Shown: piece after piece, positions 23,911 to 63,281 of the stretch
Numbering within the stretch: position 1 is the first letter of the stretch
Layout: every line of letters starts with the position of its first letter
Origin: Candidatus Limnocylindrales bacterium
Lineage (GTDB): Bacteria > Verrucomicrobiota > Verrucomicrobiia > Limisphaerales > UBA11358
Reading direction: 5' to 3'
DNA length: 64,000 bases
Assembly: GCA_035604955.1 (NCBI GenBank)
Contig: DATNHM010000056.1
Coordinates: 22,733-86,732, forward strand
Program-made: the position numbers and the translations under genes
Notes under the pieces: generated by a model
The model's input: the letters and a program-made list of their open reading frames with translations, nothing else
The model's database searches: none
Told to the model about the DNA's origin: nothing

Positions 23911-26148
<2,238 letters not shown>

Positions 26149-35617: not shown

Positions 35618-35669
35618 CTGCCAGATTTATTGGGCTCGCGAGGACGTTCGGCCCTCCGAAAGCTCGCCG

Positions 35670-46707: not shown

Positions 46708-46737
46708 CACGGATAGACACGGATAAACACGGATTGA
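46708..46737. repeat. 3 x 10-bp direct repeat upstream of the giant gene
   Basis: CACGGATAGA CACGGATAAA CACGGATTGA, 73-102 nt upstream of the ATG at 46635. Confidence 0.85.
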
Positions 46738-46743
46738 TTGGTA

Positions 46744-46766
46744 GGGCGGGCAGTCCCCTGCCCGCC
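46744..46766. repeat. GC-rich REP-like hairpin
   Basis: GGGCGGGCAG-tccc-CTGCCCGCC. It is followed by further small hairpins (CGTC..GACG, GCGCA..TGCGC). Confidence 0.7.
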
Positions 46767-46950
46767 GCCCGTCTGAACGCAAAAGACGGCGCGCACGGAG
46801 TGATGCGCCCTGCCTGCGAACGTTTTTGTTCTATCCGCGTGCATCTGTATCCATTTGTGGTTCAATTTGCTTTCTTCATTCGGCCCCAATCGGCTCGCGG
46901 GTACGCTCGCCCCACCAACCCTGCCAGATTGTCTTCTTTATTCTTCATTC

Positions 46951-46978
46951 AGCCTTCAGCCTTTAGCCTTTAGCCTTT
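46951..46978. repeat. heptamer array AGCCTTC AGCCTTT AGCCTTT AGCCTTT
   Basis: Read directly, 3 nt downstream (in gene orientation) of the stop of the 1454-aa gene. A weaker 7-nt periodicity (TCTTTAT TCTTCAT) continues to about 46933. Confidence 0.9.
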
Positions 46979-46981
46979 ACT

Positions 46982-49900
46982 TCAGTCGGCCGGCAAAACG
47001 TTAAACTGTTCAATCACCGCCGTGTTGTTGGTCACCGACGGTACCGTAATCCAATAGTACACGTTCGGAGCGGGATTGGTCAGAACAACACTGTTAACCC
47101 GCGTGCCATTAAAGCGCACCACGGCGCGGGTGGCCGCCTCCGCCACCACCTGATAATTCGTGACCATGCCGAAAAACGGCCCGCTGCCGGTGTAGATGCC
47201 GTTCGGCGCAGGCTTCAAGGTCTGGCCATAGCTGTAAATGACGTAGCGCGGCGTATCGCTGACGTGCAACAGCGACATCACCTGCTCCGGCAGCCACTCG
47301 TACATCTCGTCGCTGACGCCATTTACCTGTTGGACGGTATCGTTCCAGTTCAGGAACGGCGATTGCCAGGTCAATTGCGGAACGGCCAGAATATCGCCGA
47401 CATGCTCAAACGAGCCGACCAGGCCGTCCGGATTGACGAAATTGGTGCGGGTTTGATTGATGCCCGCCACCAGTTGCCCCAGAGCCGAATTCAATCCCGG
47501 CGGGCCGGCGGGATTAATCGCAAACGGGGTAAAATTCCCCAATGAGCCATTGTGTTGGTCGGGCGGGGTCAAGGACCATACAGGCTGAGCCGCCCCTTTA
47601 ATGGTCGCGTCAATTGCATTATTGGAAAGCACGATGACACCACTGAACAAAGCCGACCACGCCGCAAGTCCGGCCTGCGGCGAAGGGTTCCCGGCATCCA
47701 CATTCACCGATAATTGGCCCAGCGTGGCGTTGTTGTTGGGCGCCGCAGTGAAAATATCAAACAACAGCCGGTCCTGTGCTGGCGCAGCGTTGGCCGCGTC
47801 ATAGTATTGGCCGTTGACGGACGAGGTGAGCAGCGTGTCCCCAGTCCACTGTGCCCAAGTGTTGGTTCCGATGTAGTTCGTGGTGCTACCGCTCACCAGG
47901 GTTTGCTGAAGAATGTCCGGCGACTTGAGATAAACCGTCTGCCACGGCGTGCCGCGATGGACCCGGCCCAGCCAGCCGACCGACGGGAATTTATAACTCG
48001 GAAAATCCCAGTCATCCGACTGCCACACCAGCGGATCCTTGAGGGCCAAATTGGAGGGATTCTGGTCTTCGTTTGGCAGCCTCCAATTGCCGCCCCATGG
48101 CCGGTAACTCTGGTTCAACTGGCCAAGATTGCCGTTTGGACTGTTGGTCATCAGGCTGTCCACGTACCTATCGTACACAATGGCGCTTTCTCCGTTCAGA
48201 CCCCAATTCAAATCGCCGGCCAGGTAATGAACCAAGGGATCGTTCGCCTGCCAGGAAACGTGTTGGACGACCGCGGCCGTGGGCGTATAGGGCGCTTGGT
48301 TGGAAAGGCTCGTCTGACCGATAGCAATGGCCGTCGCTTCACCAGCGCCGTAAGGCGGAGGCGGCGTGTAACCCATAAAGGCGCTGAATCCCGCGATTTC
48401 ATTGGCAAGCTGGGTGGGAGAGGTCGTATTCCAAATACCGCTGGATGAACTGGCTGTATAAAGGCCCATGGATACACCCACTTGACTGAGAATCCCGACG
48501 GGCACCCCACTTTGATCGAAGTTCGTATTCCACAGCTCGCTTCCGCTGGCTTGAGCAGTATTGATCGGAGCGTTATAGTTGGTGATGATTTCGGAGGTCA
48601 AATCGCGGTAACTGTCCGGCCCGCTCAACTGCACGTAGTCAATCACCCGATTCGGATTAACGGTGGTATCCAACATAAACACCTGAAATTCGTTGGACGT
48701 GGTCAAAAACCAATGCGGTTGAGGATAGAGGTTGCCGTTGATGTTCACGCCCGTTTCAAAAGGCAACGCCTGATTGGTCGTCAACGAACGCGGGGGATAA
48801 GTGATCCCATTGTACGTCAGCCCATTGATGAGGTATGTCGAGTTGGTGATGACGGTGACGTTCGTATAGAGTGGAATCTGGAATGAGAGCTGGGAACCAA
48901 GCGGATCCGTCACCGGATTGTAACCGGGCCAGACATATCCAGCGGTAATTTGAAGGTTGCTGGCAATCGGGAAAGCCGGATAGTCGGCGGAGAAGCCTTC
49001 ATCGTTCGTCAGGGCCGCATGCCTTAAATTATCCCTCACATAAATGACCATGCTGTCGTTAAATGAATTGGTGTACGAATTCCAGCATTCCACGCCAAAC
49101 TGATTGGAAATGTTGAGGTTGAACATTTGATTAAAATGGTAGTCGCCGGGATTGTTGGCGTAAGTGTCATTGGTGCTCAGACGCGTGACCTGCAACTTGC
49201 GGGTCAGTTGAAAGGCGCTTTCCATGTCGAATTTGTTGAAATGCGGGAAACCTTTCTTCGCGCCAATAATCCACGGCACGCCATAGACGTTCACATTCGT
49301 GTAAACAAAAGCGGGGCCATAACCGACAGGGTTAGGCGGATCAGGAATGGGACTTATCAAATCGGTGACCTCCACCGGCAGAGCCAGTTGAGGATCGCCT
49401 GGACCCGTGACAGTCCCAAGCTCAATTTGCCCGTTGGCATCGTAGTAGGAGCCGACCGGTTCATAACCGGCGATATAAACATTGGTGAAGCCGTTCTCAT
49501 TGGTGACCCAAAACGTCGGGCGGAAAACAGACGGGAAATTAGCACCAAGTGCGAACGTATTATTTGTGGTGGCATCATAAATATTGGCGGCGAGCTGGAG
49601 GACGCGCTGAACGGCGGGGGTATAGACAAATTGGTTATCCACAAACACCGGAACGTGTGAAATGCCAAAGGGCAAGGGAATGTTCGTGGGGTTCAGCACG
49701 GGATTGGCCGCCGTACTGATGTTGGTGAAACTGCCGTAAGTCGCCACGTAGTTTGATGGGTTTGCCACCATCCATTCCTGCGAATAATCGCGCAGCATCC
49801 GGTCGGCGGCGTTGGTGAAAAATTGCAGCGGCGTCCACGGAATGAGATTCGTTTCCATGTCGGGAACGACGTTGCCGTTGGCATCCACGTTCACGTAATT

Positions 49901-51346
49901 AATGTTGAGCTTGTTCTGCTCCGGCGCGGATGCCACGCCCATCTGCGAGAGCAGCCGGTAATAGGTGTAGCGGTTATAGGTGGAAGGCCCACCGTCAGCC
50001 AAAGTCAAATGATTGGTGAAGGAGATGGAAGATTCACTCGGGTTAAACAACTCCTGCAAATCAAAAAATTGATTGGTGTTGGGAGCGCCGGCCCATGGCA
50101 GCGTGGGGTCATCCCGATTACGTCGATTACCCGCTTCGTTGATGGGCGCTGGCGTGGTTTGCAGCGGCCCGTCGCTGTATTCATCAATGTTGTCAAATGG
50201 GACAGTGCCAGACACCGGAAAATTGGGAGGCTGGTTGGCAAACAACAAATTGGCGCGCTTCAAACTCAGATAGTTGTTCTGGTAGCGATAAGCCAGCAGC
50301 GCCCGCGCGTCGTTAAAAGCCACTCCTTGGTTTTCGTAATTCGGGTAAGGTTGATTTTGATACCAATAGTATGTCACGTTGGGTGGCATGGTCGGAAGCC
50401 ATTGGTTGGTGTTCAAATCCGCAAGAAACGCGGCCAGATTGATTTCCCATGAGCCAACACCCTGATTACGCAAAAAGGAGTCGATCCCAGGTCCAAACGG
50501 AGAGGGATTCACACGAATCCGCCCATTTTGGGCCGGTTGTCCTTCGTCGCGAACCTGATTGTAAATGGCATTCAAATCCAGCGCGTTGCCGATGGGCACG
50601 GCAATAAAGGCGTAACGCGCCACAAACGGATTGTTGGGCCCGTACGGCTGGTCCGGATGTTGCAACACACCCACCCATTCCGGGTCGCCCGTTTCGGACA
50701 CGTAATTGGTCACGGGCAAGCCATCAATAATATTGACGATGGGGGAACCATTATTGCCAATTTCCGGCACCCAGCCGTTCGCGTCGTTCGTGCCATTGCG
50801 GTTCAAGTCGAGGTAGAAACGGAAATCGAGCGGGGCGTTCGGATTGGCATTGGTCTGGATGAACACCGGCGGGCGCGGGAGGTAATACAAGTTGCCCAGG
50901 TTCAATAGAAAATCGTTCAACGTCAGCGGATTTCCATTCGCATGTTCATATTGATAATTGACGTTGGTAAAGGCGGCGACGCCAGTCCAAAATCCGCTGG
51001 AATTGATGTAATTGGTCGAGACCAGGAGGCCGAAATTGTAGGGATTGGTGGTGGCGAGCGCATTGGCTACGATTTGTCCCTCGGCAGCGGCCAATGCGTC
51101 ATCGGCGGCCAATTTTGCCGAGGCGGTGTCGGTCGCGGTGGTCACCGCGCCGCGTTCACGCCGGCTGATGGCGAGGAACGTAAGGGCCATGAACGTCACC
51201 ACCGCCAGCAAAATCAGCGTGATGATCAAGGCAACGCCGTGTTGGGAGTGACGAGTGACGGGTGACGAGTGACACGAATGCGTCACGCGTGGCGCGCTGT
51301 TTTTCTCGTCACTTGTCACTCGCCACATGTCACATTTTAGTTTCAT
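46982..51346 (-). CDS. 1454-aa GspK/PilX-like protein, last gene of a four-gene minor-pseudopilin cassette
   Basis: N-terminus ...SQHGVALIITLILLAVVTFMALTFLAISRRERG is the GspK/PilX_N type hydrophobic helix without the G|F cleavage site and Glu5. A large N/T/P-rich extracellular region follows. The 4-nt overlap with the upstream gene suggests translational coupling. Confidence 0.75.
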   Translation of the reverse strand: MKLKCDMWRVTSDEKNSAPRVTHSCHSSPVTRHSQHGVALIITLILLAVVTFMALTFLAISRRERGAVTTATDTASAKLAADDALAAAEGQIVANALATTNPYNFGLLVSTNYINSSGFWTGVAAFTNVNYQYEHANGNPLTLNDFLLNLGNLYYLPRPPVFIQTNANPNAPLDFRFYLDLNRNGTNDANGWVPEIGNNGSPIVNIIDGLPVTNYVSETGDPEWVGVLQHPDQPYGPNNPFVARYAFIAVPIGNALDLNAIYNQVRDEGQPAQNGRIRVNPSPFGPGIDSFLRNQGVGSWEINLAAFLADLNTNQWLPTMPPNVTYYWYQNQPYPNYENQGVAFNDARALLAYRYQNNYLSLKRANLLFANQPPNFPVSGTVPFDNIDEYSDGPLQTTPAPINEAGNRRNRDDPTLPWAGAPNTNQFFDLQELFNPSESSISFTNHLTLADGGPSTYNRYTYYRLLSQMGVASAPEQNKLNINYVNVDANGNVVPDMETNLIPWTPLQFFTNAADRMLRDYSQEWMVANPSNYVATYGSFTNISTAANPVLNPTNIPLPFGISHVPVFVDNQFVYTPAVQRVLQLAANIYDATTNNTFALGANFPSVFRPTFWVTNENGFTNVYIAGYEPVGSYYDANGQIELGTVTGPGDPQLALPVEVTDLISPIPDPPNPVGYGPAFVYTNVNVYGVPWIIGAKKGFPHFNKFDMESAFQLTRKLQVTRLSTNDTYANNPGDYHFNQMFNLNISNQFGVECWNSYTNSFNDSMVIYVRDNLRHAALTNDEGFSADYPAFPIASNLQITAGYVWPGYNPVTDPLGSQLSFQIPLYTNVTVITNSTYLINGLTYNGITYPPRSLTTNQALPFETGVNINGNLYPQPHWFLTTSNEFQVFMLDTTVNPNRVIDYVQLSGPDSYRDLTSEIITNYNAPINTAQASGSELWNTNFDQSGVPVGILSQVGVSMGLYTASSSSGIWNTTSPTQLANEIAGFSAFMGYTPPPPYGAGEATAIAIGQTSLSNQAPYTPTAAVVQHVSWQANDPLVHYLAGDLNWGLNGESAIVYDRYVDSLMTNSPNGNLGQLNQSYRPWGGNWRLPNEDQNPSNLALKDPLVWQSDDWDFPSYKFPSVGWLGRVHRGTPWQTVYLKSPDILQQTLVSGSTTNYIGTNTWAQWTGDTLLTSSVNGQYYDAANAAPAQDRLLFDIFTAAPNNNATLGQLSVNVDAGNPSPQAGLAAWSALFSGVIVLSNNAIDATIKGAAQPVWSLTPPDQHNGSLGNFTPFAINPAGPPGLNSALGQLVAGINQTRTNFVNPDGLVGSFEHVGDILAVPQLTWQSPFLNWNDTVQQVNGVSDEMYEWLPEQVMSLLHVSDTPRYVIYSYGQTLKPAPNGIYTGSGPFFGMVTNYQVVAEAATRAVVRFNGTRVNSVVLTNPAPNVYYWITVPSVTNNTAVIEQFNVLPAD
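51246..51333. repeat. inverted heptamer arrays (GRGTGAC x4 / NNGYCAC x4)
   Basis: 51246-51273 is GAGTGAC GAGTGAC GGGTGAC GAGTGAC. 51306-51333 is TCGTCAC TTGTCAC TCGCCAC ATGTCAC. They lie in the first 100 nt of the 1454-aa ORF. Confidence 0.9.
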
Positions 51347-52371
51347 TGGTACGCCGTCTGGTCAACGTTGCGGATCACCACGCGCTGGCGGAACAGATGC
51401 ACCTGCCCGACGTGGTTCGACAAATAAGCCGTCTGCGCGTAGGCCGGCGCCACGTTGGGCAAACCTTCGGCGCGCTGGAGCGTGCTGTCTTCCAGCACCC
51501 CCAGCTCCACCTGCACCGACGCGGGCACGGTGTTGCTGTACATGTAAAAGCCAAACACACCGGGGACGGATTGCAGGAAAAAAAGCGTGTTTTGGTTGGT
51601 AAATGTATTATTTCCCCCGCTGTAATAATACTCGGCGGTGTTCGTCATTTCCAAACCATTGGGATCGTAAGGGCGCACTGTCAAATCCACCACGCCATCC
51701 ACCAAATGGCTCCAATACGCGGAATTGGTCGGTTGCGTTAAAGTTGACATAAAGGCGTTGTACAGCGAAGCGGGCAGCGCGGCTTGCACATTCGTGGTCG
51801 CATAGAAACGGTAGAGGGCATAGATGTCGTTCGTATCCGGTGGCGGCCTGTTCGCGACCACCGTATAACCCGTGCCCACCCAGGTCGGGCTGCCGCCGAT
51901 ATTTTGACGGCTCAGGCTGAAAAAGCTTTCCAGCAGGTTGGTGCGCAACTGGCTGCTGGCCGTCAACGACTGCATCAACGGCGGCGGAGCAGTAAGATAG
52001 TTTGCCAGCACAGTGTAAAAATTGAAGTTATTGTTCGTGTTGAGATTGTCCGCGTAATTCCCGTATTTCCAAAGGCTATTAGTGTTAACCGGGCTTGAAG
52101 ATGGCGTCATGGCTTCGAGATCGCTGGTGATCAGGCCCATGGCCAGGCGGCCGGATTCGAGAATATCGGTCTGGGTGAGGCTGGCGCGAAAGGCCTTCTG
52201 GGTGCTGTTGAAGACCGTCATCAGCGCCAGCACGATAAGCGACAGCAAGGCCAGCGTCACCAGCATCTCGACCAGAGTGAAGCCAGCGCAAGTAAAGGCC
52301 AAAGGCTGAAGGCTGAAGGCTGAAACCTCCTTTCGCTCCTGACGCATTATTTTTATTTTAGACTTTAGCAT
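51343..52371 (-). CDS. prepilin-type protein (GspJ/PilW-like minor pseudopilin), 342 aa
   Basis: ...SAFSLQPLAFTCAG|FTLVEMLVTLALLSLIVLALMTVF. An alternative start MRQERKEV lies at 52347. Confidence 0.75.
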   Translation of the reverse strand: MLKSKIKIMRQERKEVSAFSLQPLAFTCAGFTLVEMLVTLALLSLIVLALMTVFNSTQKAFRASLTQTDILESGRLAMGLITSDLEAMTPSSSPVNTNSLWKYGNYADNLNTNNNFNFYTVLANYLTAPPPLMQSLTASSQLRTNLLESFFSLSRQNIGGSPTWVGTGYTVVANRPPPDTNDIYALYRFYATTNVQAALPASLYNAFMSTLTQPTNSAYWSHLVDGVVDLTVRPYDPNGLEMTNTAEYYYSGGNNTFTNQNTLFFLQSVPGVFGFYMYSNTVPASVQVELGVLEDSTLQRAEGLPNVAPAYAQTAYLSNHVGQVHLFRQRVVIRNVDQTAYQ

Positions 52372-52384
52372 TTAGCCTTTAGCT
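52295..52384. repeat. inverted heptamer arrays (AAGGCYG x4 / TTTAGNN x4)
   Basis: 52295-52322 is AAGGCCA AAGGCTG AAGGCTG AAGGCTG. 52357-52384 is TTTAGAC TTTAGCA TTTAGCC TTTAGCT. Confidence 0.9.
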
Positions 52385-52390
52385 TTTTCT

Positions 52391-53383
52391 TCATGGCGCG
52401 CTGGTGAACGTTTGCGGCTGGAAAAAATACAACCACTCTTTGTTATTGTAATCGCCGGTTTGAACCATTTGACCGGCGACCGATGTCCGGAATGTCTGGC
52501 GGCCATTGCCCGGGGCGCCGTTGGGCAGCAACGGCCAGAGGAACGTGAACCGCAGTTCACGCAGGTTGGAGGTGAGTTGCTGAGCTGGGGAACCCAGCAC
52601 CACCCATGGAGCAGAAGGCTGCCTTGGATTTTTACCGGTATTGGCAGCAGTTGCCCGCCAGGTAAGCCCAGCCCAGTAAACCTCGTCTCCAGCCTTGTAC
52701 TGCGTGGCCACTTGCCAAATCGGCGGGATGTAAACCGCCACCGGCACATTCTGACAAATCATCTTGTAGCTGAAGGAGTCACTGCGAATAATATCATTGT
52801 CCTGTGGCGGTTTTTCCACTGCCGGCCCGCTGAGAGAACGAACGTAAACGACCACGTAATTGCTGATGCCGCCTTCGACCAGATTGAGAATGGGCGCGCC
52901 GTTGCCCTGGTTGATATATTCCGGTGTGCTGAGCAACCCGATGATGTTCATGCCGTTGGTAAGGGGCGCGCCGGGCGGCGTACCGGCGGTCGGATACTTT
53001 GGAGCGATAGTGAAATTGGTGTAAGTATAACTGTTCACTCCGGGTTGAGGCAAAGCACCGATGGTCGGGTAGTACGCCCAGTAATTCGTGATCGCCAGAA
53101 CGTAATTGGTCAGGTCATCCAGGCCGCGTGCGCCGTTGCGGATGTTTTCGATGAACACGGTGGCGTCCTGGCCAATCAAGGTCTCCTCGCGATTGTCCTT
53201 CTGGACGTTGAGGCCGGCGGGCAGCACGCCGATGATGGCCACCAGCGCAATGCCGATGATGGCCAGGCAAATGGCAATCTCCACCATGGTAAAGCCGGCA
53301 CAGGCAAAGGCTGAAGGCTGAAGGCCGAAGGCTAAAACCTTTTCCCGCGCCCAGCGCGCATCCATTGTTTTAGAATTTAGCAT
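52391..53383 (-). CDS. prepilin-type protein (GspI/PilV-like minor pseudopilin), 330 aa
   Basis: ...LAFGLQPSAFACAG|FTMVEIAICLAIIGIALVAIIGVLP. An alternative start MDARWAREK lies at 53365. Confidence 0.75.
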   Translation of the reverse strand: MLNSKTMDARWAREKVLAFGLQPSAFACAGFTMVEIAICLAIIGIALVAIIGVLPAGLNVQKDNREETLIGQDATVFIENIRNGARGLDDLTNYVLAITNYWAYYPTIGALPQPGVNSYTYTNFTIAPKYPTAGTPPGAPLTNGMNIIGLLSTPEYINQGNGAPILNLVEGGISNYVVVYVRSLSGPAVEKPPQDNDIIRSDSFSYKMICQNVPVAVYIPPIWQVATQYKAGDEVYWAGLTWRATAANTGKNPRQPSAPWVVLGSPAQQLTSNLRELRFTFLWPLLPNGAPGNGRQTFRTSVAGQMVQTGDYNNKEWLYFFQPQTFTSAP

Positions 53384-53403
53384 TTAGACTTTATCCTTTT
53401 AGT
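53307..53403. repeat. inverted heptamer arrays (AAGGCNN x4 / TTTANNN x5)
   Basis: 53307-53334 is AAGGCTG AAGGCTG AAGGCCG AAGGCTA. 53369-53403 is TTTAGAA TTTAGCA TTTAGAC TTTATCC TTTTAGT. Confidence 0.9.
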
Positions 53404-53404
53404 G

Positions 53405-54301
53405 TCATTGCAATTTCGGTTCTCTCAGCGTCGCGCGGCCGGTCAGCGGGTCAATGTCAATGAGGTTGTAGGCGTTCGTGCTGTTGCCCAGCGGAGCTTC
53501 ATAAACCTGCGGCGACCGGAGCTGAAACGTCTTGGTGGCCGGGTCCACCGCCGGCAACAGGCTGCCACGCGCCAGCGGGATGTATTCATGTTGGGAGGCC
53601 ACGGTCTGCCCGTCATCCGTCAACTGGCCGAGGTAGTTGAAGGCGATGTAAGGCAGATAAAAAGGGGAGCCAAAGGCGGGAGTGTTCGTTTCCGCGGGAA
53701 ACGGAATGGTGTTGGTGTAAGCAAAGGGATAAATCGAGAAAAATTTTGTGGGATCAATTGGATCTTTGAATTGGTAAGGCTGGGTGGGCTGATAAAATTT
53801 CCATTGGGCGATAAACGTGCCGTCGGGCAGCGACTGCCAGGGGGCGAGATAGTGCCATTGGTGGTTTCCGGGCTGATCGCCCACCGCGCCGAGAGCGGCA
53901 AACGTGTAACCGGTCAGTTGCTTGTCGCACAGATTGGTCGTGGCGGGCAGGGCCTGTAGCGCCGCGGACAGGTTGTTGTTCCAAAAATTCGCCGGGACGA
54001 AAACCATATAAACCGTGGTGCGCTGGCTGATGGCCAGTTGGCGGGCACGCGCGACGTCGTTGAGCATCTGCTGGTCGGCGGCGGTCATGGCGTCCGCGTG
54101 GCCGAAGTTTTTGAGCGCCGGCACGGCCAACGCCGCCAGCAGGGCCATGATGCTCAACACAATCAGCATCTCGACCAGGGTAAAAGCCCGGCGGGTGACG
54201 GGTGACGGGTGACGGGTGACAAGACACGGGACGCGGGCACACACAGCACTGGCTGCCCGGCTCTCGACACTCGACACTCGACACTCGACACTCATAATCA
54301 T
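53405..54301 (-). CDS. prepilin-type protein (GspH/FimT-like minor pseudopilin), 298 aa
   Basis: MIMSVECRVSSVESRAASAVCARVPCLVTRHPSPVTRRA|FTLVEMLIVLSIMALLAALAVPAL...DVARARQLAISQRTTVYMVF. Confidence 0.75.
   Translation of the reverse strand: MIMSVECRVSSVESRAASAVCARVPCLVTRHPSPVTRRAFTLVEMLIVLSIMALLAALAVPALKNFGHADAMTAADQQMLNDVARARQLAISQRTTVYMVFVPANFWNNNLSAALQALPATTNLCDKQLTGYTFAALGAVGDQPGNHQWHYLAPWQSLPDGTFIAQWKFYQPTQPYQFKDPIDPTKFFSIYPFAYTNTIPFPAETNTPAFGSPFYLPYIAFNYLGQLTDDGQTVASQHEYIPLARGSLLPAVDPATKTFQLRSPQVYEAPLGNSTNAYNLIDIDPLTGRATLREPKLQ
54193..54297. repeat. paired heptamer arrays (GGGTGAC x4 / CTCGACA x4-5)
   Basis: 54193-54220 is four perfect GGGTGAC units. 54263-54297 is CTCGACA x4 plus CTCATAA. 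The arms are only partly complementary (about 5 of 7 positions). Confidence 0.9.
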
Positions 54302-55164
54302 TGCCAGCTCAGAATGTTGTCTTTGTTGGCGCCCGTGTTGGCACTGGCATTGGGATCCACCTTCCCATCCGGCCCGGCCGACCAGACCATTACGTTGCCG
54401 TGGAACCGGAAATTGTCGGCGGTGCCATCGGGATCAATCAAACCGTTTAGTCCCGGATTCGAATTTCCACTCGGACCTGACACGGCTGACAAGCTGTAAA
54501 AGGCGTCCTTTGCCTGATTGTCCGCATTCACGTCCAGGGTGATGACGTAGGGATTTTTCCACGGATCGCGATAAACCAGATCCGGCCCCACGCCCGGCAG
54601 ATTCGGAGCACTGACCATTTTGGCGTTCAGGAAAACGGTTTGCTGGGGGTTCTTTTGGTGGTTTTGGTTGACCGCAGTCACCGTGGTGTTGGTGATGTCC
54701 ATCAAAATGGCGATGACTTCCGAATTGTTGGTATTATAGGTGACTGCCGGAGGATTCAGCAGGTTGAATTTGGCATTCGCCACGCCATTGGTCCCGTAGG
54801 TGAAACTCCCGCCATTTGCTGACGCCGCGTTCTGCGCCAGGCTGGAAACCGGCATGCGGCTGTAGGTCGAATCATAATTCTGAATGGCCGTGACGAGGTC
54901 GCTGATTTGCAACTGCGCCTGCCTCTTCTGCGCTTGCAGTTTGGCTGCCGACAGGGCCGGCAACAGCATGGCCGCCAGAATGGCGATGATCGCGATGACC
55001 GTCAGCAATTCCACAATGGTAAAAGCCCGCCTTCGTTCCACTCCGGCGCGGCAAGCGTGACGGGTGACGGGTGACGCGTGGCACGAAAAGTCGGCGCGCG
55101 CTTCGTGTTTAATCTCGCCACTCGTCACCTGCCACCCGTCACGTTTTATCATTTTGGTTTTCAT
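54298..55164 (-). CDS. GspG/PulG-like major (pseudo)pilin, 289 aa
   Basis: MKTKMIKRDGWQVTSGEIKHEARADFSCHASPVTRHACRAGVERRRA|FTIVELLTVIAIIAILAAMLLPALSAAKLQAQKRQAQLQISDLVTAIQNYDSTYSRMP. The start at 55164 is preferred to the ORF-track 55389, whose extra 75 aa cover repeat-filled intergenic DNA. Confidence 0.75.
   Translation of the reverse strand: MKTKMIKRDGWQVTSGEIKHEARADFSCHASPVTRHACRAGVERRRAFTIVELLTVIAIIAILAAMLLPALSAAKLQAQKRQAQLQISDLVTAIQNYDSTYSRMPVSSLAQNAASANGGSFTYGTNGVANAKFNLLNPPAVTYNTNNSEVIAILMDITNTTVTAVNQNHQKNPQQTVFLNAKMVSAPNLPGVGPDLVYRDPWKNPYVITLDVNADNQAKDAFYSLSAVSGPSGNSNPGLNGLIDPDGTADNFRFHGNVMVWSAGPDGKVDPNASANTGANKDNILSWQ
55055..55142. repeat. inverted heptamer arrays (GNGTGRC x4 / NNGYCAC x4)
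   Basis: 55055-55082 is GCGTGAC GGGTGAC GGGTGAC GCGTGGC. 55115-55142 is TCGCCAC TCGTCAC CTGCCAC CCGTCAC. Confidence 0.9.
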
Positions 55165-55201
55165 AGGTTTGAAAAAGTGTTGTGCCGGGAATGTTGAAGC
55201 C

Positions 55202-55288
55202 GGAAGGGAGAAGGAGGAAACACTCCGCGAACGATTGAACCCGGCCAAATCGTTTCTGTCTTCTGCCTTCCGCCTTCCGCCTTCCGTT
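55202..55288. repeat. purine run GGAAGGGAGAAGGAGGAAACA facing heptamer array TTCTGCC TTCCGCC TTCCGCC TTCCGTT
   Basis: 55202-55222 and 55261-55288, read directly. GGAAGG and CCTTCC cores are complementary. It is intergenic, between the two GspG-like genes. Confidence 0.8.
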
Positions 55289-55467
55289 CCAACCGCACCA
55301 CCAGGCGCGGACGCCACGCGCGGTCGTGCCATTGAACCGGAATCGGAAGGGAGCGGAGCGCGGGCGGCCCGCCCGCGAGTTCCGGGCACGGCTTCGCGCG
55401 GACGAGCCGTCCGCGCTCCTGCGGCGGCGGGGTCAACCGGATGTTGTCGGCGTTGCGCATAAAAAAC

Positions 55468-56226
55468 TCAGGGCACCGAGTTGTTGTTGAGCTGCACCGA
55501 TTTGGTCCAGTTGCAGATGAGGTTGGTATTCCCGGCAATTTCGAGTTGAATCCACAAGTCATACGAGCCGGGATTGTTGGTTCCGGGATAGGCGTAACGC
55601 CAGGGGTTCACGCCGGAGTTGGCATTTCCCAGCGGATTGTAGCTGTTATCCGGTCCGCCGGAAGGAGTGACCAGGAGGTTGACCGGTGTGCCGCCGACCG
55701 TTACCTTGGAAATTTGATTGGTGTTCAGGTCCGGCAGAAAATTTCGGGCCGGTTGCGCGGATTCGTCGCCGCCGGGTTTGGCGCAATTCATGAAGCCACC
55801 CACCCCCGACCCAAACACGGTACCCAACGAGGCTGCGGGAATCGTGGCGGTGTGGTCCAGGGTCATGTAGTTGCCATTGGTCGGAATGGTCCCTGCCAGT
55901 TCATAATACAATTGGTTGGTCAAGGGACCATTGGGACAGGCCGGCGGATAAAAACCGTAGGCGGATTTGTACTGTTCCAGCGCGGTCTGCAACTGCGACA
56001 TCTGGGCCTGGGCGTTGTGAATAAACGCCTGCCGCCGCACCGCGCTGCCCACCGGCAGAATGAGCGCGGCAATCACGGCAATGACAGCAATGACCGTCAG
56101 CAGTTCAATCAGGGTAAAAGCCAACGGGTGACGGGTGACGGGTGACGGGTGACGAGCATACCCAGAACCCGCCACGTTTGTCTCGTCACGCGTCACTCGC
56201 CACTTGTCACAGTTGTTCGTTTTCAT
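55468..56226 (-). CDS. GspG/PulG-like major (pseudo)pilin, 252 aa
   Basis: MKTNNCDKWRVTRDETNVAGSGYARHPSPVTRHPLA|FTLIELLTVIAVIAVIAALILP...QMSQLQTALEQYKSAYGFYP. Confidence 0.8.
   Translation of the reverse strand: MKTNNCDKWRVTRDETNVAGSGYARHPSPVTRHPLAFTLIELLTVIAVIAVIAALILPVGSAVRRQAFIHNAQAQMSQLQTALEQYKSAYGFYPPACPNGPLTNQLYYELAGTIPTNGNYMTLDHTATIPAASLGTVFGSGVGGFMNCAKPGGDESAQPARNFLPDLNTNQISKVTVGGTPVNLLVTPSGGPDNSYNPLGNANSGVNPWRYAYPGTNNPGSYDLWIQLEIAGNTNLICNWTKSVQLNNNSVP
56126..56210. repeat. inverted heptamer arrays (GGGTGAC x4 / NNGYCAC x4)
   Basis: 56126-56153 is four perfect GGGTGAC units. 56183-56210 is TCGTCAC GCGTCAC TCGCCAC TTGTCAC. Confidence 0.9.
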
Positions 56227-56498
56227 CGTTCACGCACTTCGTGTTCCATTCGTTCGCTGAGCCACTGCTTGATCATGCTCTGGTAATTCAAGTAACGCGA
56301 CCGCGCCAGGCGTTTGATGCGCGCCAGCATCCGCGGGTCCATGCGCAACGTGATGGTCACGGACTCGGCGGATTCGGCGCTGCTGGCCACGGCCGCGTCC
56401 ATCAGGCGCAGGTCCGGCCGGTTCTCCGCCCAAAAGTCCGCCTCGGCGTCTTCGGTGTCGAAGAGCGGGACTTCTTCCCATCTGGCAAATGTTCGCAT
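56223..56498 (-). CDS. brnA: BrnA-like (CopG/RHH-type) antitoxin
   Basis: MRTFARWEEVPLFDTEDAEADFW...SVTITLRMDPRMLARIKRLARSRYLNYQSMIKQWLSERM. Start taken at the Met after the heptamer array. The stop overlaps the ATG of the next pilin gene (ATGA). Confidence 0.6.
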   Translation of the reverse strand: MRTFARWEEVPLFDTEDAEADFWAENRPDLRLMDAAVASSAESAESVTITLRMDPRMLARIKRLARSRYLNYQSMIKQWLSERMEHEVRER

Positions 56499-56500
56499 AA

Positions 56501-56589
56501 CTGTGACCTGTGACCTGTGACGAGTGACGTGATTTTCACGCCCGCGATTCGCCAACCATTCGCGTCACTCGTCACCCGTCACTTTTCAC
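56501..56589. repeat. inverted heptamer arrays (CTGTGAC x3 + GAGTGAC / NYGTCAC x3 + TTTTCAC)
   Basis: Arrays at 56501-56528 and 56562-56589. They span the brnT stop and the brnA 5' region. Confidence 0.9.
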
Positions 56590-56875
56590 CCGCGCTCAGT
56601 GTCTGGTCCATTTTCCGCTGGTAAAAGAACCGTTCTTCCGGCTCGAACGGGCGCGCCAACAAGACGCGCACCAGCCGCCCATTGGCCCGGTACACGCTGA
56701 AAATGCCGATGCCACCCGCCGACATGCCCAGGTTGAAAAAGCGCGCCTGCACGCCAAATCGCGGCGAGTCCGGCAGCAGCCGGATGGCAAACGGGTCTTC
56801 AAAGGACTCTTCAATTTCCAACGGAGTCAAAGAACCATCCGTTGCAAACGGCGGATTATTCCAATCAAACTCCAT
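56579..56875 (-). CDS. brnT: BrnT-like (DUF497) toxin
   Basis: MEFDWNNPP...LTPLEIEESFEDPFAI...FSVYRANGRLVRVLLARPFEPEERFFY matches the BrnT pattern (F.WD...FEE...F.DP......R.ISAR.A...ER..Y). It lies directly upstream of a BrnA-like gene. Confidence 0.6.
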   Translation of the reverse strand: MEFDWNNPPFATDGSLTPLEIEESFEDPFAIRLLPDSPRFGVQARFFNLGMSAGGIGIFSVYRANGRLVRVLLARPFEPEERFFYQRKMDQTLSAGEK

Positions 56876-56921
56876 AACGAGCTAACTGTAAATAACACGC
56901 CCATGCAATGTGTTTACAATG

Positions 56922-56951
56922 TATTTACGCATGGATGCTGTTCTTTGTCAA
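56922..56951 (-). promoter_or_regulatory. candidate sigma70-type promoter for brnTA
   Basis: On the minus strand: TTGACA (56951-56946), an 18-nt spacer, then TAAATA (56927-56922), about 47 nt upstream of the brnT ATG. The surrounding DNA has GTAAATA/TATTTAC and CATGC/GCATG inverted repeats that could be an operator. Confidence 0.3.
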
Positions 56952-56997
56952 CGGTTTTTTTCGAACCGGAGCGAAATGGCTTTGGACCAGTCAATTA

Positions 56998-58308
56998 TCA
57001 GTCCCCGCCGCTGCCGCCGCTGCCGGACAGGTTGCTGATCATGGCAATCAACGGCAGGAACATGGCGATGACGATGCTGCCCACAATGACGGCCAGAAAG
57101 ATGATCATGATGGGCTCCAGCAGGGAAGTCATGGCCGACACGGCATTGTCCACTTCTTCATCGTAGTTGTCGGCAATGCGCAGCAGCATTTCCGGCAGGG
57201 CGCCGGTCTGTTCACCGACGTCCACCATGCTGACGACCATGGGCGGAAAGACCCCGGAACCTTCCAACGGCGCGGTGATGGTCTCGCCTTCCTTGACGGC
57301 CTCATGGACCGCGCCGACGGCGTTGGCGATGATGACGTTCCCGGCGGTTTCCTTGACAATGGTCAGCGCCTGCAAAATCGGAACGCCGCTGCTGACGAGC
57401 GTGCCGAGGGTGCGGGTGAAGCGGGCGATGGCCACCTTGTTGATGACCGGGCCCAGGACCGGAACTTTCAATTTGAACTTGTCCCAGACGTGCCGGCCGA
57501 TTTTGGTCCGGATGATCAGCATAAACACCACCACGAAGGCCGCGACACAGATGGAGGTTACGAAGAAGTGATCCTTGACGGCGGAACTGACCGCCAGCAC
57601 AAAGAGGGTGAATTTCGGCATCTTGACATTCATGCCTTCAAAGACCCCCTGAAACCTCGGGATCACAAACGTCAGCAGCAGGATCATGATGCCCGTCGCC
57701 ACGATGAGCACGGCGATCGGATAAAACATCGCCGCCTTGACCTTGCCCTTGATCTTCTGCGCCTTTTCGGAAAATTCCGCCAGGCGTTTCAGCACCACTT
57801 CCAGCACGCCGCCCAGTTCGCCGGCCTTGACCATGTTGACGAAGAGGCGGTTGAAAACCCTGGGATGCTGCGCGAGCGCCTCGGAAAACGTGCTGCCGCC
57901 TTCGATCGCGAGCGCCAGCTCGCCGAGAATGCCCCGGAGGGTGGCGTTGCGCTCCTGTTTTTCGAGCACGCGCAAACCGCGCAGGAGCGGCAAACCCGCG
58001 TCCACCAGCGTGGCCAACTGGCGCGTGAACGTCGTCAACACCTTCGGCTTTACCCGGCCGCTCAGTCCGGGAATTTTGATCTGGATATCGAGCGCGCCCC
58101 CCCGCTTTTTGCCGCCGCCGGCCCGGGGCGCTGCCTTGCTCTTCTTCCGCGTGATTTTTTCCTGCGGTTTTTCGGCCTCGACAATTTTGGTCGGGAAGAA
58201 ACCCATTTCCTTGACGCGGCCAATGGCCTCGTTCTGGCTGGCGACTTCGATCGTGCCTTTGGTTTCTTTGCCGTGCGCATCCAGCGCCACGTAACTATAT
58301 TTCGGCAT
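56998..58308 (-). CDS. pilC: type IV pilus / T2SS platform protein (PilC/GspF family)
   Basis: 436 aa. MPKYSYVALDAHGKETKGTIEVASQNEAIGRVKEMGFFP, two T2SSF repeats, and three TM segments. Confidence 0.9.
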   Translation of the reverse strand: MPKYSYVALDAHGKETKGTIEVASQNEAIGRVKEMGFFPTKIVEAEKPQEKITRKKSKAAPRAGGGKKRGGALDIQIKIPGLSGRVKPKVLTTFTRQLATLVDAGLPLLRGLRVLEKQERNATLRGILGELALAIEGGSTFSEALAQHPRVFNRLFVNMVKAGELGGVLEVVLKRLAEFSEKAQKIKGKVKAAMFYPIAVLIVATGIMILLLTFVIPRFQGVFEGMNVKMPKFTLFVLAVSSAVKDHFFVTSICVAAFVVVFMLIIRTKIGRHVWDKFKLKVPVLGPVINKVAIARFTRTLGTLVSSGVPILQALTIVKETAGNVIIANAVGAVHEAVKEGETITAPLEGSGVFPPMVVSMVDVGEQTGALPEMLLRIADNYDEEVDNAVSAMTSLLEPIMIIFLAVIVGSIVIAMFLPLIAMISNLSGSGGSGGD

Positions 58309-58319
58309 AAACTAAAACA

Positions 58320-58409
58320 GTCCCCGGTCCCCGGTCTCCAGTCCCCCGTCAAAGGACCGCGAACGCTGCGGACTCGACTGTGGACTGCGGACTGTGGACT
58401 GCGGACTCA
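58320..58409. repeat. inverted heptamer arrays (GTCCCCG-type x4 / GGACTGY x6)
   Basis: 58320-58347 is GTCCCCG GTCCCCG GTCTCCA GTCCCCC. 58368-58409 is GCGGACT CGACTGT GGACTGC GGACTGT GGACTGC GGACTCA in 7-nt register. The region is intergenic, between the second ATPase gene and pilC, with the last 3 nt overlapping the ATPase stop codon (58407-58409). Confidence 0.9.
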
Positions 58410-60110
58410 TGTATATTTGACGATTTCCTCAATAGTGGTATCACCTTCAAAAATACCGCGCAAGCCGTCTTCGCGCAAGGTCACCATCCCCAGCTCGACG
58501 GCTTTCTGGCGCACCACCACCGTCGGCGCGCGTTCATTGATCAGGGTCCGAATCGCCTCGCTGATGATGAGCAATTCGAAGATGCCCTTCCGGCCCTTGT
58601 AACCGGTGTCGTTACAGGTGGAACAGCCGCGGCCATAATGAAAAACCTTGTCGCCCAGGTCGTGCGGCGAAAGATTCAACAGGCCCAGTTGTTCCTCCGT
58701 CGGTTCGAACGGCGTCCGGCAATTCGAGCAGATGGTCCGGACCAGCCGCTGGGCCAGCACCGCCATCAAGGTCGAGGAAATCAGAAACGGCTCGACCCCC
58801 ATGTCCAGCAGGCGCGTCACCGCGCCCGGCGCGTCATTGGTGTGCAACGTGCTCAAGACCAGGTGGCCGGTCAGCGACGCCTGGATGGAAATCTGCGCCG
58901 TTTCCAGGTCGCGCATTTCCCCCACCATGATAATGTCCGGGTCCTGGCGCAAGAACGACCGCAACGCCTTGCCGAACGTCATGCCCGCCGCCTCGTTGAT
59001 GGCCACTTGCATAATGCCCTCGATGTCATATTCCACCGGGTCTTCGGCGGTGAGCAGTTTGGAATCAAGGGTATTGATGCGCCGCAGACAGGAATAGAGC
59101 GTCGTGGTTTTGCCGGAACCGGTCGGGCCGGTCACAATCATGATGCCGTTGGGACGTTGAATCGCCTCGGTGACATAATCGTGCACGTATTTGGGGAAGC
59201 CGAGTGTTTCAATGTCCAGGTTGACCGCCGCGCGGTCGAGCACGCGCAACACGACCGATTCGCCGAACTGGGTCGGCAGCGTGGAGACGCGCAAATCAAT
59301 CTGCCGGTTGGCCATGGGGAAATTGATGCGCCCGTCCTGCGGCAGCCGCTTTTCGGAAATATTCAGGCCGGACATGACCTTGATGCGCGAAATCACCGGC
59401 AGGGCGAGGTGTTTCGGCGGGGGCGACATTTCATAGAGGGCGCCGTCCACGCGGTAACGGATGCGGAACTCGGTTTCAAACGGCTCGAAATGAATGTCAC
59501 TGGCGCGGTCCTGGATGGCCTGGAACAGGACCAGATTCACAAATTTCACGATGGGCGCCTGGTTGGCCAGGTCTTCGGCCAGCTTCGCGTCATCGGCGGC
59601 TTCGCTCGCTTCGCGGGCGATTTCGGCATCCTCACCCAGTTCCTTGAGAATCGCGGAGACGTCCCCCGTTTCCTCCTGGCCGTAATGCTGGTCAATCGCC
59701 TTTTGAATGTCGGCGGGGTCGGCCACCACCACCTGCACGTCCTTTTTGACCGCGAAATGGATTTCGTCCGGCCGCCCCGGGTCGAGCGGGTCGGCCAGCG
59801 CCACCTGCACCGTGCCGTCGTGGGCGGCGACCGGCAGGCACTGATACATGCGCGCGACATTGGCCGGAATCGTCTGTAACAACTCGGGCGTAAATTGGAC
59901 ATCGCGCAGGGAGATGACCCTGGTGCCCAGATAATTCGCCATCACCTGCAGGATGTCGTCGAGCTGCATGATCCCGAAATCCTGGAGCAGATGAATGACC
60001 GGCGTGCCGCTGCGTTTGAATTCGGCGGCGACCTCCTCGTACTGCAGGTCGTCAATCAACCCCAGTTCTTTGACGAGGGACAGCAACGGATTGGAAACTT
60101 CTTCGGCCAT
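58407..60110 (-). CDS. pilB: GspE/PilB-family secretion/assembly ATPase (copy 2)
   Basis: 567 aa. N-terminal T2SSE_N-like domain, Walker [11 protein letters not shown], Asp/His boxes ([17 protein letters not shown]), and the tetracysteine CSNC...CSTC. Confidence 0.9.
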
Positions 60111-60122
60111 TTTATCAAAATA

Positions 60123-61241
60123 TCATTTTGCCCCGGATTTGGACGGGGCGGGTTCGCCCAGGGACTGGGCCAGCTCCAGTTCCTGCAATTTTTGCTGGAT
60201 CGTCGTCGGGTCCTGCGCCTTGGTGATGACTTCCTCGCGCGCAATCATGCCCTGCAGGTACTTGTCCATCAGGAACGAGTCGAGCGTCACCATGCCGTAT
60301 TTCGCGCCGGTCTGGATGTCCGAGTTGATGCGGAACGTCTTGTTGTCGCGGATCAGGGCGGCGATGGACGGCGTGTTGACCATGACTTCAAAAACCGCCA
60401 CGCGGCCCGGCTTGTCAATCCGCGGAATCAGCAACTGCGAAATCACCGCCTGCATGACGGTGGAAAGCTGAATGCGCACCATTTCCTGCTGGTTGGTCGG
60501 AAACGCGTTGGTGATGCGGTCAATCGTCTTGGCCGCGCCCGTGGTGTGCAGCGTGCCGAAAACCAGGTGCCCCGTTTCCGCCGCCGTGATGGCCGCTTCC
60601 ATGGTTTCCAGGTCGCGCATTTCACCGACGAGAATCACATCGGGGTCCTGGCGCAACGCGCGGCGCAGCCCCTCGGCAAAATTCGGCACGTCCACCCCGA
60701 TCTCGCGCTGCGTGACCAGCGACTTTTTATGGTGATGGTAATACTCAATCGGGTCTTCGATGGTGATGATATGCACCTCGTCGCGCTGCTCATTAATGAC
60801 GTTGAGCATGGAGGCCAGCGTGGTGGTTTTGCCGGAACCGGTCGGCCCGGTCACCAGCACCATGCCGCGCGGCTTGTACAGCAATTCCGTGGTGCTGGGG
60901 GGAACGCCGATTTGCTCCAGGGTCAGCAACTTGTTGGGAATCTGCCGGAGTACCAGGCCAAAGTTGCCCTTCTCCTTGAAGACGCTGACGCGGAACCGCG
61001 CCACGTCACCGAAGGCAAAGCCAAAGTCCGCGCCGCCGTGTTCGCGGGTGCTCTGAATATGTTCCTCGGACGTGATGCTGCGCATCAATTCCTCGGCATC
61101 CTCCGGTTTGAGCGCCGGGCCTTCCACGCGGTGCAGAATGCCGTGTACCCGGATGGTCGGCGGCGTGCCCACGCGGATGTGCAGGTCGGACGCGCCTTCC
61201 GACACCACCAACTGCAACAGATCGGACATGGAGTAGGACAT
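60123..61241 (-). CDS. pilT: twitching-motility retraction ATPase PilT
   Basis: 372 aa. [38 protein letters not shown], and [20 protein letters not shown]. No N-terminal extension. Confidence 0.9.
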
Positions 61242-61250
61242 AAAATTTCA

Positions 61251-61369
61251 AAGGCTGAAGGCGGAAGGCGGAAGGCTGAAACCCCGGGCAGCCGCCCGGA
61301 AGTTTACGGCGGGCATCGGTTCCGGGTTTGATTTTTCGTTCTTCATTCTGCCTTCTGCCTTCTTCATTA
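61251..61369. repeat. inverted heptamer arrays (AAGGCKG x4 / TKCNTTC x5)
   Basis: 61251-61278 is AAGGCTG AAGGCGG AAGGCGG AAGGCTG. 61335-61369 is TTCGTTC TTCATTC TGCCTTC TGCCTTC TTCATTA. The loop contains the hairpin CCGGGC-agcc-GCCCGG. Confidence 0.9.
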
Positions 61370-61371
61370 AA

Positions 61372-63075: not shown

Positions 63076-63281
63076 GGCTCAAATATACACGGACTATATG
63101 TGTGGAAAGCAAAAAAGACTACGCTTGAAAATCGCGATGTCAATGCGGAGCAAAGAATTTCCGGTGGAAGGGCGAGACGCCCCGGCCGGGAATTCTCCAC
63201 CCGCCACCGGGTCCAAACAGGATTGCGCAGCAGTGCACCCCTCGAATAGCCTTGGGTAAAACCAAAAGCCCCTTAACCAGC

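Follow-up and report, generated by a model that had tools for sequence, protein, structure and literature searches.

The stretch analysed here (the window: 64,000 nucleotides (nt), positions 22,733 to 86,732 of contig DATNHM010000056.1, assembly GCA_035604955.1) carries on its minus strand a Verrucomicrobiota type II secretion/type IV pilus-like operon whose gene boundaries hold inverted pairs of tandem 7-nt (heptamer) arrays, six of which extend into the coding sequence of prepilin-like genes. The operon opens with genes for a PilB/GspE-like ATPase (ATPase1), PilT, a second PilB/GspE-like ATPase (ATPase2) and PilC/GspF, and continues with those for a 98-amino-acid (aa) protein, a CopG/BrnA-like protein, five proteins with a prepilin N-methylation motif (the first to fifth pseudopilins) and a 1454-aa protein that has a prepilin-like N-terminus and a weak match to the Verru_Chthon cassette protein A. 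PF07963 matches five open reading frames (ORFs), three of them above the curated cut-off, with motif onset at residue 28–37 in four ORFs and at residue 119 in the longest reading of the second gene; gene callers disagree on the start positions of these pseudopilin genes. Credibly named homologues of PilC are from Verrucomicrobiota or Verrucomicrobiae.

Placement, architecture and folding of the heptamer pairs

Scanning the window for tandem repeats of at least three copies with at most two mismatches returned 19 arrays of period 7, against 0, 1, 0, 0 and 0 for periods 8, 9, 10, 11 and 12, and 17 of the 19 lie within 46.9–61.4 kb. A first-pass annotation, made from the bare letters, had listed arrays in this region; sequence inspection, the scan and Tandem Repeats Finder all place them at or within a few bases of where it put them, the last program reporting period-7 arrays, mostly of 3.0–4.7 copies, at each position. 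The operon holds ten inverted array pairs (J1 to J10) with arms separated by 18–70 nt, all at boundaries of co-directional genes. The concentration at cistron junctions claimed at first reading thus holds for gene boundaries, in about 90 related operons as well as here, with the correction that six pairs lie wholly or partly inside the downstream prepilin-like ORF: four pairs occupy untranslated spacers and six the 5' coding part of prepilin-like genes. Because the operon is on the minus strand, the run previously called the first, in plus-strand coordinates, is the 3' arm on the mRNA, and arms are named below in the mRNA sense. As had been proposed, the property common to the pairs is their architecture (a 7-nt unit, about four copies, an inverted partner at 20–70 nt) and not their sequence; the preference for about four units appears both in the Tandem Repeats Finder copy numbers of the window and in a modal span of 4–5 units (partial flanking units included) in relatives. 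Four GTGAC/GTCAC pairs rank among the strongest short-range inverted repeats of the 64 kb, with 80–87% complementarity over 22–30 nt, and the non-GTGAC pairs fall below that range.

The mRNA (minus) strand of each junction was folded and compared with 200 dinucleotide shuffles, the outcome being expressed as z. Five junctions (the four GTGAC pairs and 54190–54300) gave z = −3.8 to −6.4, four gave z = −1.7 to −2.7, and one (53304–53406) gave z = +0.16. The long segmented hairpin predicted in the first-pass annotation is therefore solid for about half of the pairs of the window and weak for the AAGGC/TTTAG family; it is not general, being found in only 17–28% of the 178 related leader regions described below. 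In agreement with the first-pass annotation, no heptamer pair was called as an intrinsic terminator or coincides with a terminator-like site (18 sites in the region against 22.1 expected), and a search of the window region against Rfam at a permissive threshold matched no family, giving only chance microRNA hits at 56124–56214.

The four untranslated pairs typically extend from the upstream stop codon to a few bases short of the next start. J1 (61251–61369, on the minus strand like the other nine) lies between the ATPase1 stop (61372) and the pilT ATG (61241), with a 5' arm of GAAGGCA-type units at 61335–61369 and a 3' arm of four GCCTTC[CA] units at 61251–61280 (z = −1.85). J2 (58320–58409; z = −2.66) fills the 98-nt spacer from the ATPase2 stop (58407) to the pilC ATG (58308), with GTCCGCA/GTCCACA units in its 5' arm and GGGGACC/GGGGACT units in its 3' arm. 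J3 (56501–56589; z = −6.4), of the GTGAC/GTCAC family, separates the 98-aa gene from the CopG/BrnA-like gene; the TGA of its first GTGAC unit is itself the upstream stop, and the downstream ATG (56498) stands 3 nt past the 3' arm. J6 (55199–55288; z = −1.7), in the approximately 300-nt untranslated spacer from the first to the second pseudopilin gene, is a weak pair of three GGAAGGC units in the 5' arm and a pyrimidine run of loose periodicity in the 3' arm; the run at 55202–55222, originally listed as a heptamer array, is only loosely heptameric.

One further array of the operon stands alone. The TAAAGGC/TGAAGGC array at 46946–46981 (minus strand) begins 2 nt past the stop of the last gene, that for the 1454-aa protein, and sequence inspection together with the inverted-repeat scan of the window found no inverted partner for it, as the first reading had stated. 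The rest of the window does contain two heptamer arrays, both unpaired and both in frame within ORFs. An ATTTACG array at 28184–28216 (plus strand) is read in frame near the C-terminus of a TsaE-like ORF (27855–28286), a housekeeping-type protein, as ..EWAERIYDLRFAIDDLKK.., and the same unit also yields FTIYDLRF peptides in pseudopilin leaders of related operons. An ATTGCCG array of 4.7 perfect copies at 24576–24613 (minus strand) encodes in-frame SAIGNRQ repeats in a 745-aa ORF (23911–26148); this unit is also present in the first-pseudopilin leader of L132 (related loci are given here by L numbers). A second pilin-like operon at 29–32 kb has ordinary leaders of 14–21 aa and, as originally noted, no arrays.

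Arrays as coding sequence in prepilin leaders

At J4, J5, J7 and J10 both arms are in frame and form part of a 36–47-aa leader ahead of the FTLIE motif, and at J8 and J9 the 3' arm is translated, with the start codon in the 5' arm or the loop and a leader of 22–30 aa depending on the ATG. In the genes for the first pseudopilin, the third pseudopilin and the 1454-aa protein, the ATG overlaps the upstream stop (ATGA), and both arms lie between this ATG and the motif. J4 (56124–56210; z = −3.84), a GTGAC/GTCAC pair within the first pseudopilin ORF (55468–56226), encodes the leader MKTNNCDKWRVTRDETNVAGSGYARHPSPVTRHPLA followed by FTLIELL, with the N-methylation motif from residue 36; its predicted fold contains a G·U pair at a GUGGC unit. 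J5 (55053–55146; z = −6.27), of the same family and 87% complementary, lies within the second pseudopilin ORF (ATG 55164) and encodes MKTKMIKRDGWQVTSGEIKHEARADFSCHASPVTRHACRAGVERRRA followed by FTIVELL. J7 (54192–54297; z = −4.5), within the third pseudopilin ORF (53405–54301), has a 5' arm of four GAGTGTC units, which are free of stops in all frames, and a 3' arm of four GTCACCC units. J10 (51245–51333; z = −5.76) is a GTGAC/GTCAC pair within the 1454-aa prepilin-like ORF (46982–51346), where the leader MKLKCDMWRVTSDEKNSAPRVTHSCHSSPVTRHSQHG precedes VALIITL and the Verru_Chthon_A N-terminal match begins at residue 37.

The two AAGGC-family pairs are paralogous to each other. J8 (53305–53403; z = +0.16, no excess folding), at the fourth pseudopilin gene, has a 5' arm of CTAAA type that contains TAA stops and is mostly untranslated, the first ATGs lying in this arm and in the loop; its 3' arm of four AGCCTTC units is translated as ..KVLAFGLQPSAFACAG followed by FTMVE. 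J9 (52294–52387; z = −1.81), at the fifth pseudopilin gene, has its ATG in the loop and encodes MRQERKEVSAFSLQPLAFTCAG followed by FTLVEML. The arrays of six prepilin-like genes are thus translated in frame. By analogy with the protein family, the long leader that contains them is probably cleaved off by prepilin peptidase.

This coding arrangement extends to relatives. In nine lineages, each of the 45 prepilin-like genes can be read in the FTLIE frame without interruption back across the arrays as far as a start codon (ATG, apparently GTG in a few), and this codon overlaps the preceding stop, adjoins it or is not far from it; at least one stop interrupts the other two frames in 89 of 90 comparisons; the leader begins with a conserved MKT.. 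and is otherwise variable. A wider set of 190 genes, taken from 80 loci, has a median leader length of 45 aa, and the 150 nt upstream of the motif lack an in-frame stop in 129 of the 190, against 47 of 380 for the other frames. The orthologue of the second pseudopilin in L125 has a plain 13-aa leader, MKTTSARSRRQPA followed by FTLVELL, without an element, which we read as an empty site. Leader growth is visible in L157, whose translated array has been enlarged as an in-frame 21-nt heptamer triple to give five SD.W.VT repeats. N-terminal repeats in database proteins such as VTRHPSP, SDEWRVT and FTIYDLR are likely to be translated heptamer arrays.

An intact GTGACNN array contains TGA in every frame, and these stops have been removed where they would interrupt the leader. 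Among units of translated 5' arms in which TGA would fall in frame, GTGGC occurs 31 times, four other variants once each and GTGAC not at all; among out-of-frame units of the same arms, GTGAC occurs 34 times and GTGGC 11 times. Untranslated elements from the matches listed in other phyla provide the comparison, since units flanked on both sides by GTGAC read GTGAC 253 times and GTGGC never. The in-frame TGA is thus almost always removed by a change of GTGAC to GTGGC (TGG), and this change accounts both for the runs that the first-pass annotation wrote as NNGYCAC and for the recurrent ..D.W[RQ]VT.. peptides.

Related operons, other phyla and neighbouring features

Orthologous operons with 73–96% PilC identity were compared with that of the window. 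In some 90 relatives of it within Verrucomicrobiota, arrays occupy the same junctions but are built of differing units, and in all lineages examined in detail the gene order is identical and the arrays recur at the same boundaries, some junctions being empty in some lineages. Eighty metagenomic related loci contain 256 period-7 arrays of 92 unit families, with 0–6 arrays for other periods; their positions form sharp peaks at ATPase1/pilT, at ATPase2/pilC and where the downstream genes begin (5' ends), whereas gene bodies are nearly free of them, and the pseudopilin part holds 0.72 arrays per kb compared with 0.09 per kb immediately beyond the operon. Individual junctions illustrate the turnover of units. 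At J1 the unit family is retained in L123 and L124, replaced by another in L125 and absent, the site being empty, in L126; at J2 a GTGAC-family pair occurs in L123 and L124 and an empty 21-nt spacer in L125; and the fourth pseudopilin gene has AAGGC-type units in the window, GTGAC-type units in L123 and L124 and GAGAGTC-type units in L125.

Near-identical leader elements also occur in non-orthologous pseudopilin genes, with 91% identity over 91 nt within L157 and, where L170 is compared with L190, 90% identity over 97 nt in genes that do not correspond, a pattern that, as judged from sequence identity, indicates copying between paralogues. No target-site duplication was recognisable when filled and empty junctions were compared. 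Changes in unit number were looked for in near-identical contigs, and no copy-number polymorphism was found between the window and L001, between L132 and L133 or between L127 and L128 (comparisons of 17, 21 and 6 kb). L001 (JGI metagenome contig Ga0136449_100000329, 127 kb) differs from window positions 46998–64000 by 9 substitutions and 0 indels in 17 kb. Nor was any out-of-frame allele seen among the 45 leaders of the nine lineages, and no convincing case was found among the 190 genes. The first-pass suggestion of a slippage hot spot is therefore not borne out by these near-identical contigs and alleles.

Folding is less uniform in the relatives. Of 178 related leader regions, 17% have z < −3 and 28% z < −2, against 2% and 3% of gene-body controls; the median is z = −0.43, and 72% have z > −2. 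A strand test for selection at the RNA level gave no folding advantage of the mRNA strand over its antisense, the mean difference of 2.05 kcal/mol favouring the antisense (n = 42, p = 0.03).

Turning to more distant genomes, a pattern of GTGACNNGTGACNNGTGAC, a 15–45-nt gap and GTCACNNGTCACNNGTCAC was scanned against one reference genome per species and matched at least 120 stretches. Among the matches listed, to which the following figures refer, most belong to Pyrinomonadaceae/Blastocatellia (Acidobacteriota), with others in Verrucomicrobiota, Planctomycetota, Nitrospirota, Anaerolineales (Chloroflexota), Bacteroidota, Omnitrophota and a number of further groups. As a rule the two arms match without a mispair, even at the two variable bases, and the elements usually fill the whole stop-to-start spacer: the upstream stop is often the TGA of an early GTGAC unit (median distance −1 nt, n = 105), and the next in-frame ATG peaks 6–14 nt past the last GTCAC. 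The same loci hold 448 period-7 arrays in 865 kb, against 1–11 for periods 8–11, and many further heptamer families in inverted pairs, several per 8-kb locus. None of the 130 GTGAC elements from other phyla adjoins a prepilin motif, and Rfam gave no family match for 15 of the loci. In L049 (Pyrinomonadaceae; 5973–6292), two GTGAC/GTCAC hairpin elements directly flank a tRNA gene (6091–6160), a hint that such elements act, or are tolerated, where RNA is processed.

Several features of the operon and its surroundings are recorded here in their own right. One of the substitutions between the contigs makes a TAA stop in L001 of a sense codon in the window, and because of this stop the 1454-aa ORF is shown as two genes in the public record. 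The 98-aa and CopG/BrnA-like genes (56223–56875) resemble a toxin-antitoxin pair, yet none of the relatives examined (L123–L133) lacks them or has them elsewhere in the operon; no family of Pfam or NCBIfam is matched by the 98-aa protein, and the label brnT given to its gene in the first-pass annotation is therefore unverified. In L131 (15161–16915) the fourth and fifth pseudopilin genes are apparently fused into one 617-aa ORF, probably by an assembly frameshift in this long-read assembly and less probably by a genuine gene fusion. A gene of the PDDEXK_3 (GxxExxY-type) family adjoins the operon in L124, L125 and L126 and is not found in the window.

Terminator-like hairpins with T tracts lie at the stop of the first (GspG-like) pseudopilin gene (55465–55482, minus strand) and about 175 nt past the last gene (46791–46808, minus strand); the former may attenuate transcription beyond the major pseudopilin gene, and the latter may be the operon terminator. 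GC-rich palindromes of another kind, of the GGGACGAGC.. and GGGCGGGCAGTCCCCTGCCCGCC types, recur at 25175–25246, 35571–35622, 46741–46770 and 55355–55419 and may constitute a hairpin repeat family of their own. A giant 3066-aa ORF (37435–46635, minus strand) follows the operon directly on the same strand, and the 350-nt spacer that leads to it contains a 10-nt tandem repeat, CACGGATAAA, in 2.7 copies at 46708–46734. An 87-nt tandem repeat (2.2 copies, 85% match) occurs at 6761–6949 within a minus-strand ORF (5978–7516).

Origin, possible roles and comparison with known repeats

We interpret the elements as repeat palindromes, each of two inverted arrays of about 3–5 units around a 20–70-nt spacer, that arise and decay, that are tolerated between cistrons and in a leader that is probably removed, and that probably exert some effect as RNA stem-loops, a reading to which we assign a probability of about 60%. 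Arrays would arise by 7-nt replication slippage, and intrastrand template switching would keep the two arms alike, which fits the mirrored arms. Whole elements would then be copied among paralogous leaders by recombination, most simply through the conserved flank that codes for FTLIELL, and would decay afterwards; the weak folding of most related leader regions, of which 17–28% beat their shuffles, points to such decay. As for their survival, an insert that folds back on itself would keep the stop and the next start close together, with little harm to be expected, and a leader that prepilin peptidase would remove should offer a permissive place for extra codons, provided that in-frame stops go (GTGAC to GTGGC). 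Younger copies would form 25–30-bp mRNA stem-loops at or just after each start codon. Such stem-loops would probably affect translational coupling or RNA cleavage but would be dispensable at any single junction.

Some of the results weigh against this interpretation. Purely neutral tolerance fails to explain the hot spot of 17 arrays in 14.4 kb against 2 in the remaining approximately 50 kb, leaves the 0.72 against 0.09 arrays per kb of the relatives equally unexplained, and does not account for the array-free pilin-like operon nearby. The near-exclusive use of TGG in place of the in-frame TGA hints at selection for RNA pairing: of the single-base changes that abolish TGA, none but TGG leaves the base paired in the RNA (as G·U). 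Slippage and template switching are, moreover, processes that we infer, and no indel separates the near-identical contigs.

Alternatively, the pairs could be selected cis-acting RNA stem-loops, serving as double-stranded RNase III sites, as selective-processing sites or as termination-reinitiation gates that set the relative output of the ATPases, PilC and each pseudopilin, the leader being a coding sleeve that can be discarded. In about 90 related operons the junctions have remained occupied despite the turnover of sequence; stems are as long as 25–30 bp, and z falls as low as −6.4; each hairpin has its 5' foot at the upstream stop and ends, at its 3' foot, 3–14 nt from the next start; and TGA has become TGG in 31 of 35 in-frame units, with the G·U pair kept in the predicted fold. 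For other operons, control of stoichiometry by intercistronic stem-loops is known (PMC4423207). We nevertheless rate this explanation as less likely than not, since most related leader regions fold no better than shuffles (median z −0.43; 72% with z > −2), several junctions are empty in some lineages and folding does not favour the mRNA strand (mean difference 2.05 kcal/mol towards the antisense, n = 42, p = 0.03). The unpaired array of the last gene, an ATG-to-stem distance that varies from +8 to +22 and the occurrence of unpaired arrays of this kind inside unrelated ORFs count against it as well. A stronger claim, in which the heptamer palindromes are a continually renewed, selected RNA device that fixes the stoichiometry of the pseudopilins by gating, at each cistron, termination-reinitiation or cleavage by RNase III, with the leader again as a coding sleeve, we hold to be unlikely; if true, it would give the long-unexplained heptamer repeats of bacteria a concrete function.

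The spread of units raises a different question, namely whether mobile or copied elements, akin to miniature inverted-repeat transposable elements or to REPINs (paired repetitive extragenic palindromic (REP) sequences), are inserted at gene starts by some enzyme and spread horizontally between soil bacteria. The unit families GTGACNN, AAACTTG, ATTTACG and GGGACCG recur in distant phyla, operons with 96% identical PilC bear different families at the same site, and whole elements are common to non-orthologous genes. This sharing between paralogues is more simply explained by homologous recombination through the FTLIELL-coding flank, however, and the comparison of filled with empty sites shows no target-site duplication; the loops differ between copies within one genome, which would not be expected had a master copy transposed recently, the arms consist of tandem arrays and not of REP-type imperfect palindromes, and no transposase gene was noticed adjoining the elements, although no systematic search for one was made. 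We therefore rate insertion by such an enzyme as distinctly improbable. A unit length that is not a multiple of 3, in arrays that lie in the 5' coding region of surface-structure genes (six ORFs), would also suit contingency loci in which gain or loss of a unit shifts the frame and switches pseudopilins on or off, as in Neisseria opa, but other results disagree: 45 of 45 leaders are in frame with no convincing out-of-frame allele among 190 genes, the near-identical contigs (17 kb, 21 kb and 6 kb) have zero indels, the tracts are short at about four units, the array growth in L157 is an in-frame 21-nt heptamer triple, and untranslated spacers and unrelated ORFs contain such elements too. Phase switching is accordingly very unlikely. 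Less credible still is an action of the arrays as DNA G-quadruplex or i-motif elements. The GGGTGAC arrays of four units (56126–56153 and 54193–54220) do have four G3 tracts on the template strand within 50 bp of an ORF start, as in PMC4692102, yet most families have no G runs (AAGGCTG, ATTTACG, ATTGCCG, GAGAGTC, AACATCG and others) and the preference for four units holds in them too; for the same reason we reject the G-quadruplex as a unifying feature. Two further assignments are rejected. CRISPR (short palindromic repeats, clustered and regularly interspaced), already dismissed in the first-pass annotation, is excluded by the lack of spacer arrays, and integron attC sites by the lack of conserved core sites, gene order being fixed across relatives.

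Over-representation of tandem heptamers has been known since about 1990–2007 and their inverted pairs since 2015, neither with an accepted function or origin. The present locus amounts to a natural experiment, in that a dozen gene boundaries are occupied in about 90 operons with fast unit turnover and some empty sites, and half of the elements are obliged to be readable as protein. Three influences can be told apart here at a single locus, namely the constraint of coding (TGA to TGG), the pairing of the RNA and the mutational origin. Should the stem-loops prove to have a function, prepilin leaders would represent a novel type of refuge in which a gene can safely house an RNA element.

The closest counterparts are the heptameric simple sequence repeats (SSRs) that Rehm et al. 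(2015) described in Xanthomonas (GGGAATC) and Nostoc (GGGGA(C/T)T) (PMC4692102). Those arrays prefer about four units, are enriched between co-directional ORFs and have no known function; Xanthomonas has 70–75 convergent array pairs per genome that ‘could form stem-loops’ (PMC4692102). The elements here agree in the 7-nt unit, the approximately four units, the placement between co-directional ORFs and near ORF starts on the non-coding strand, and the frequent inverted pairs able to form stem-loops. Conservation of the type of pair among relatives while length and sequence vary, as in Xanthomonas and Nostoc, is a further shared feature. The differences are that those genomes have one dominant G-rich unit, whereas many unrelated units occur in this one operon, and that six pairs here are in frame within prepilin leaders. 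A G-quadruplex or i-motif was proposed for GGGNNNN heptamers of four units; unlike the G-rich units of Xanthomonas and Nostoc, most units here cannot form one, G3 tracts being confined to the GGGTGAC and GGGGACC arrays, and this property defines a G-quadruplex subclass rather than heptamer SSRs in general.

Few-copy tandem heptamers at many sites per genome are also known as the short tandemly repeated repetitive (STRR) sequences of the cyanobacteria Calothrix and Nostoc, from Geobacter metallireducens, which has 49 four-heptamer elements with the unit GGGACCG (PMC2700814), and from Beggiatoaceae, cyanobacteria and Bacteroidetes, where TAACTGA heptamers lie just upstream of start codons (PMC4679880). 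The Geobacter unit is that of the J2 3' arm at ATPase2/pilC, and these repeats share with ours a frequent position directly upstream of start codons and an occasional one within genes. TAACTGA repeats are almost always direct, with one indirect repeat among 170 sets (PMC4679880), and none of the STRR, Geobacter and TAACTGA repeats has a described link to a particular operon or to leader peptides. Mrazek et al., whose hypothesis is cited in PMC4692102 and PMC4679880, attributed the 7-nt step itself to a slippage bias of bacterial SSRs.

The likeness to REP sequences, bacterial interspersed mosaic elements and REPINs lies in short extragenic hairpin repeats between co-directional genes, and REPINs in particular have two inverted arms around a spacer with a similar total length of 70–110 nt. 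REP arms, however, are imperfect palindromes with a conserved 5' tetranucleotide and a link to RAYT transposases, whereas the arms here are direct tandem heptamers with unconserved loops, with units that differ between copies and in many families, so that the earlier separation from classic REPs stands; no RAYT (Y1) transposase is among the annotated neighbours, for which no systematic search was made. The RNase III sites of phage T7 are long stem-loops at cistron boundaries. Similar stem-loops in operons subject to selective RNA processing and stabilisation (SRPS), which encode multi-subunit machines (PMC4423207), resemble the present arrangement; the SRPS and T7 elements are single-copy, have mapped cleavage or protection and are not known to consist of tandem heptamers or to lie inside the next ORF, whereas the elements here are known from sequence alone. 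Neisseria opa has CTCTT repeats in the region that codes for its signal peptide, and so resembles the present leaders in carrying a tandem repeat that is not a multiple of 3 in the coding part for the removable leader of a surface protein; the opa tracts are long, direct, highly variable in length and frame-switching, whereas those here are short, arranged in inverted pairs, without length variation and always in frame. The elements of this operon belong to the known class of heptameric SSR pairs and do not form a new class; what is new is that they persistently occupy one secretion/pilus operon and that, within prepilin leaders, the arrays have been domesticated in frame.

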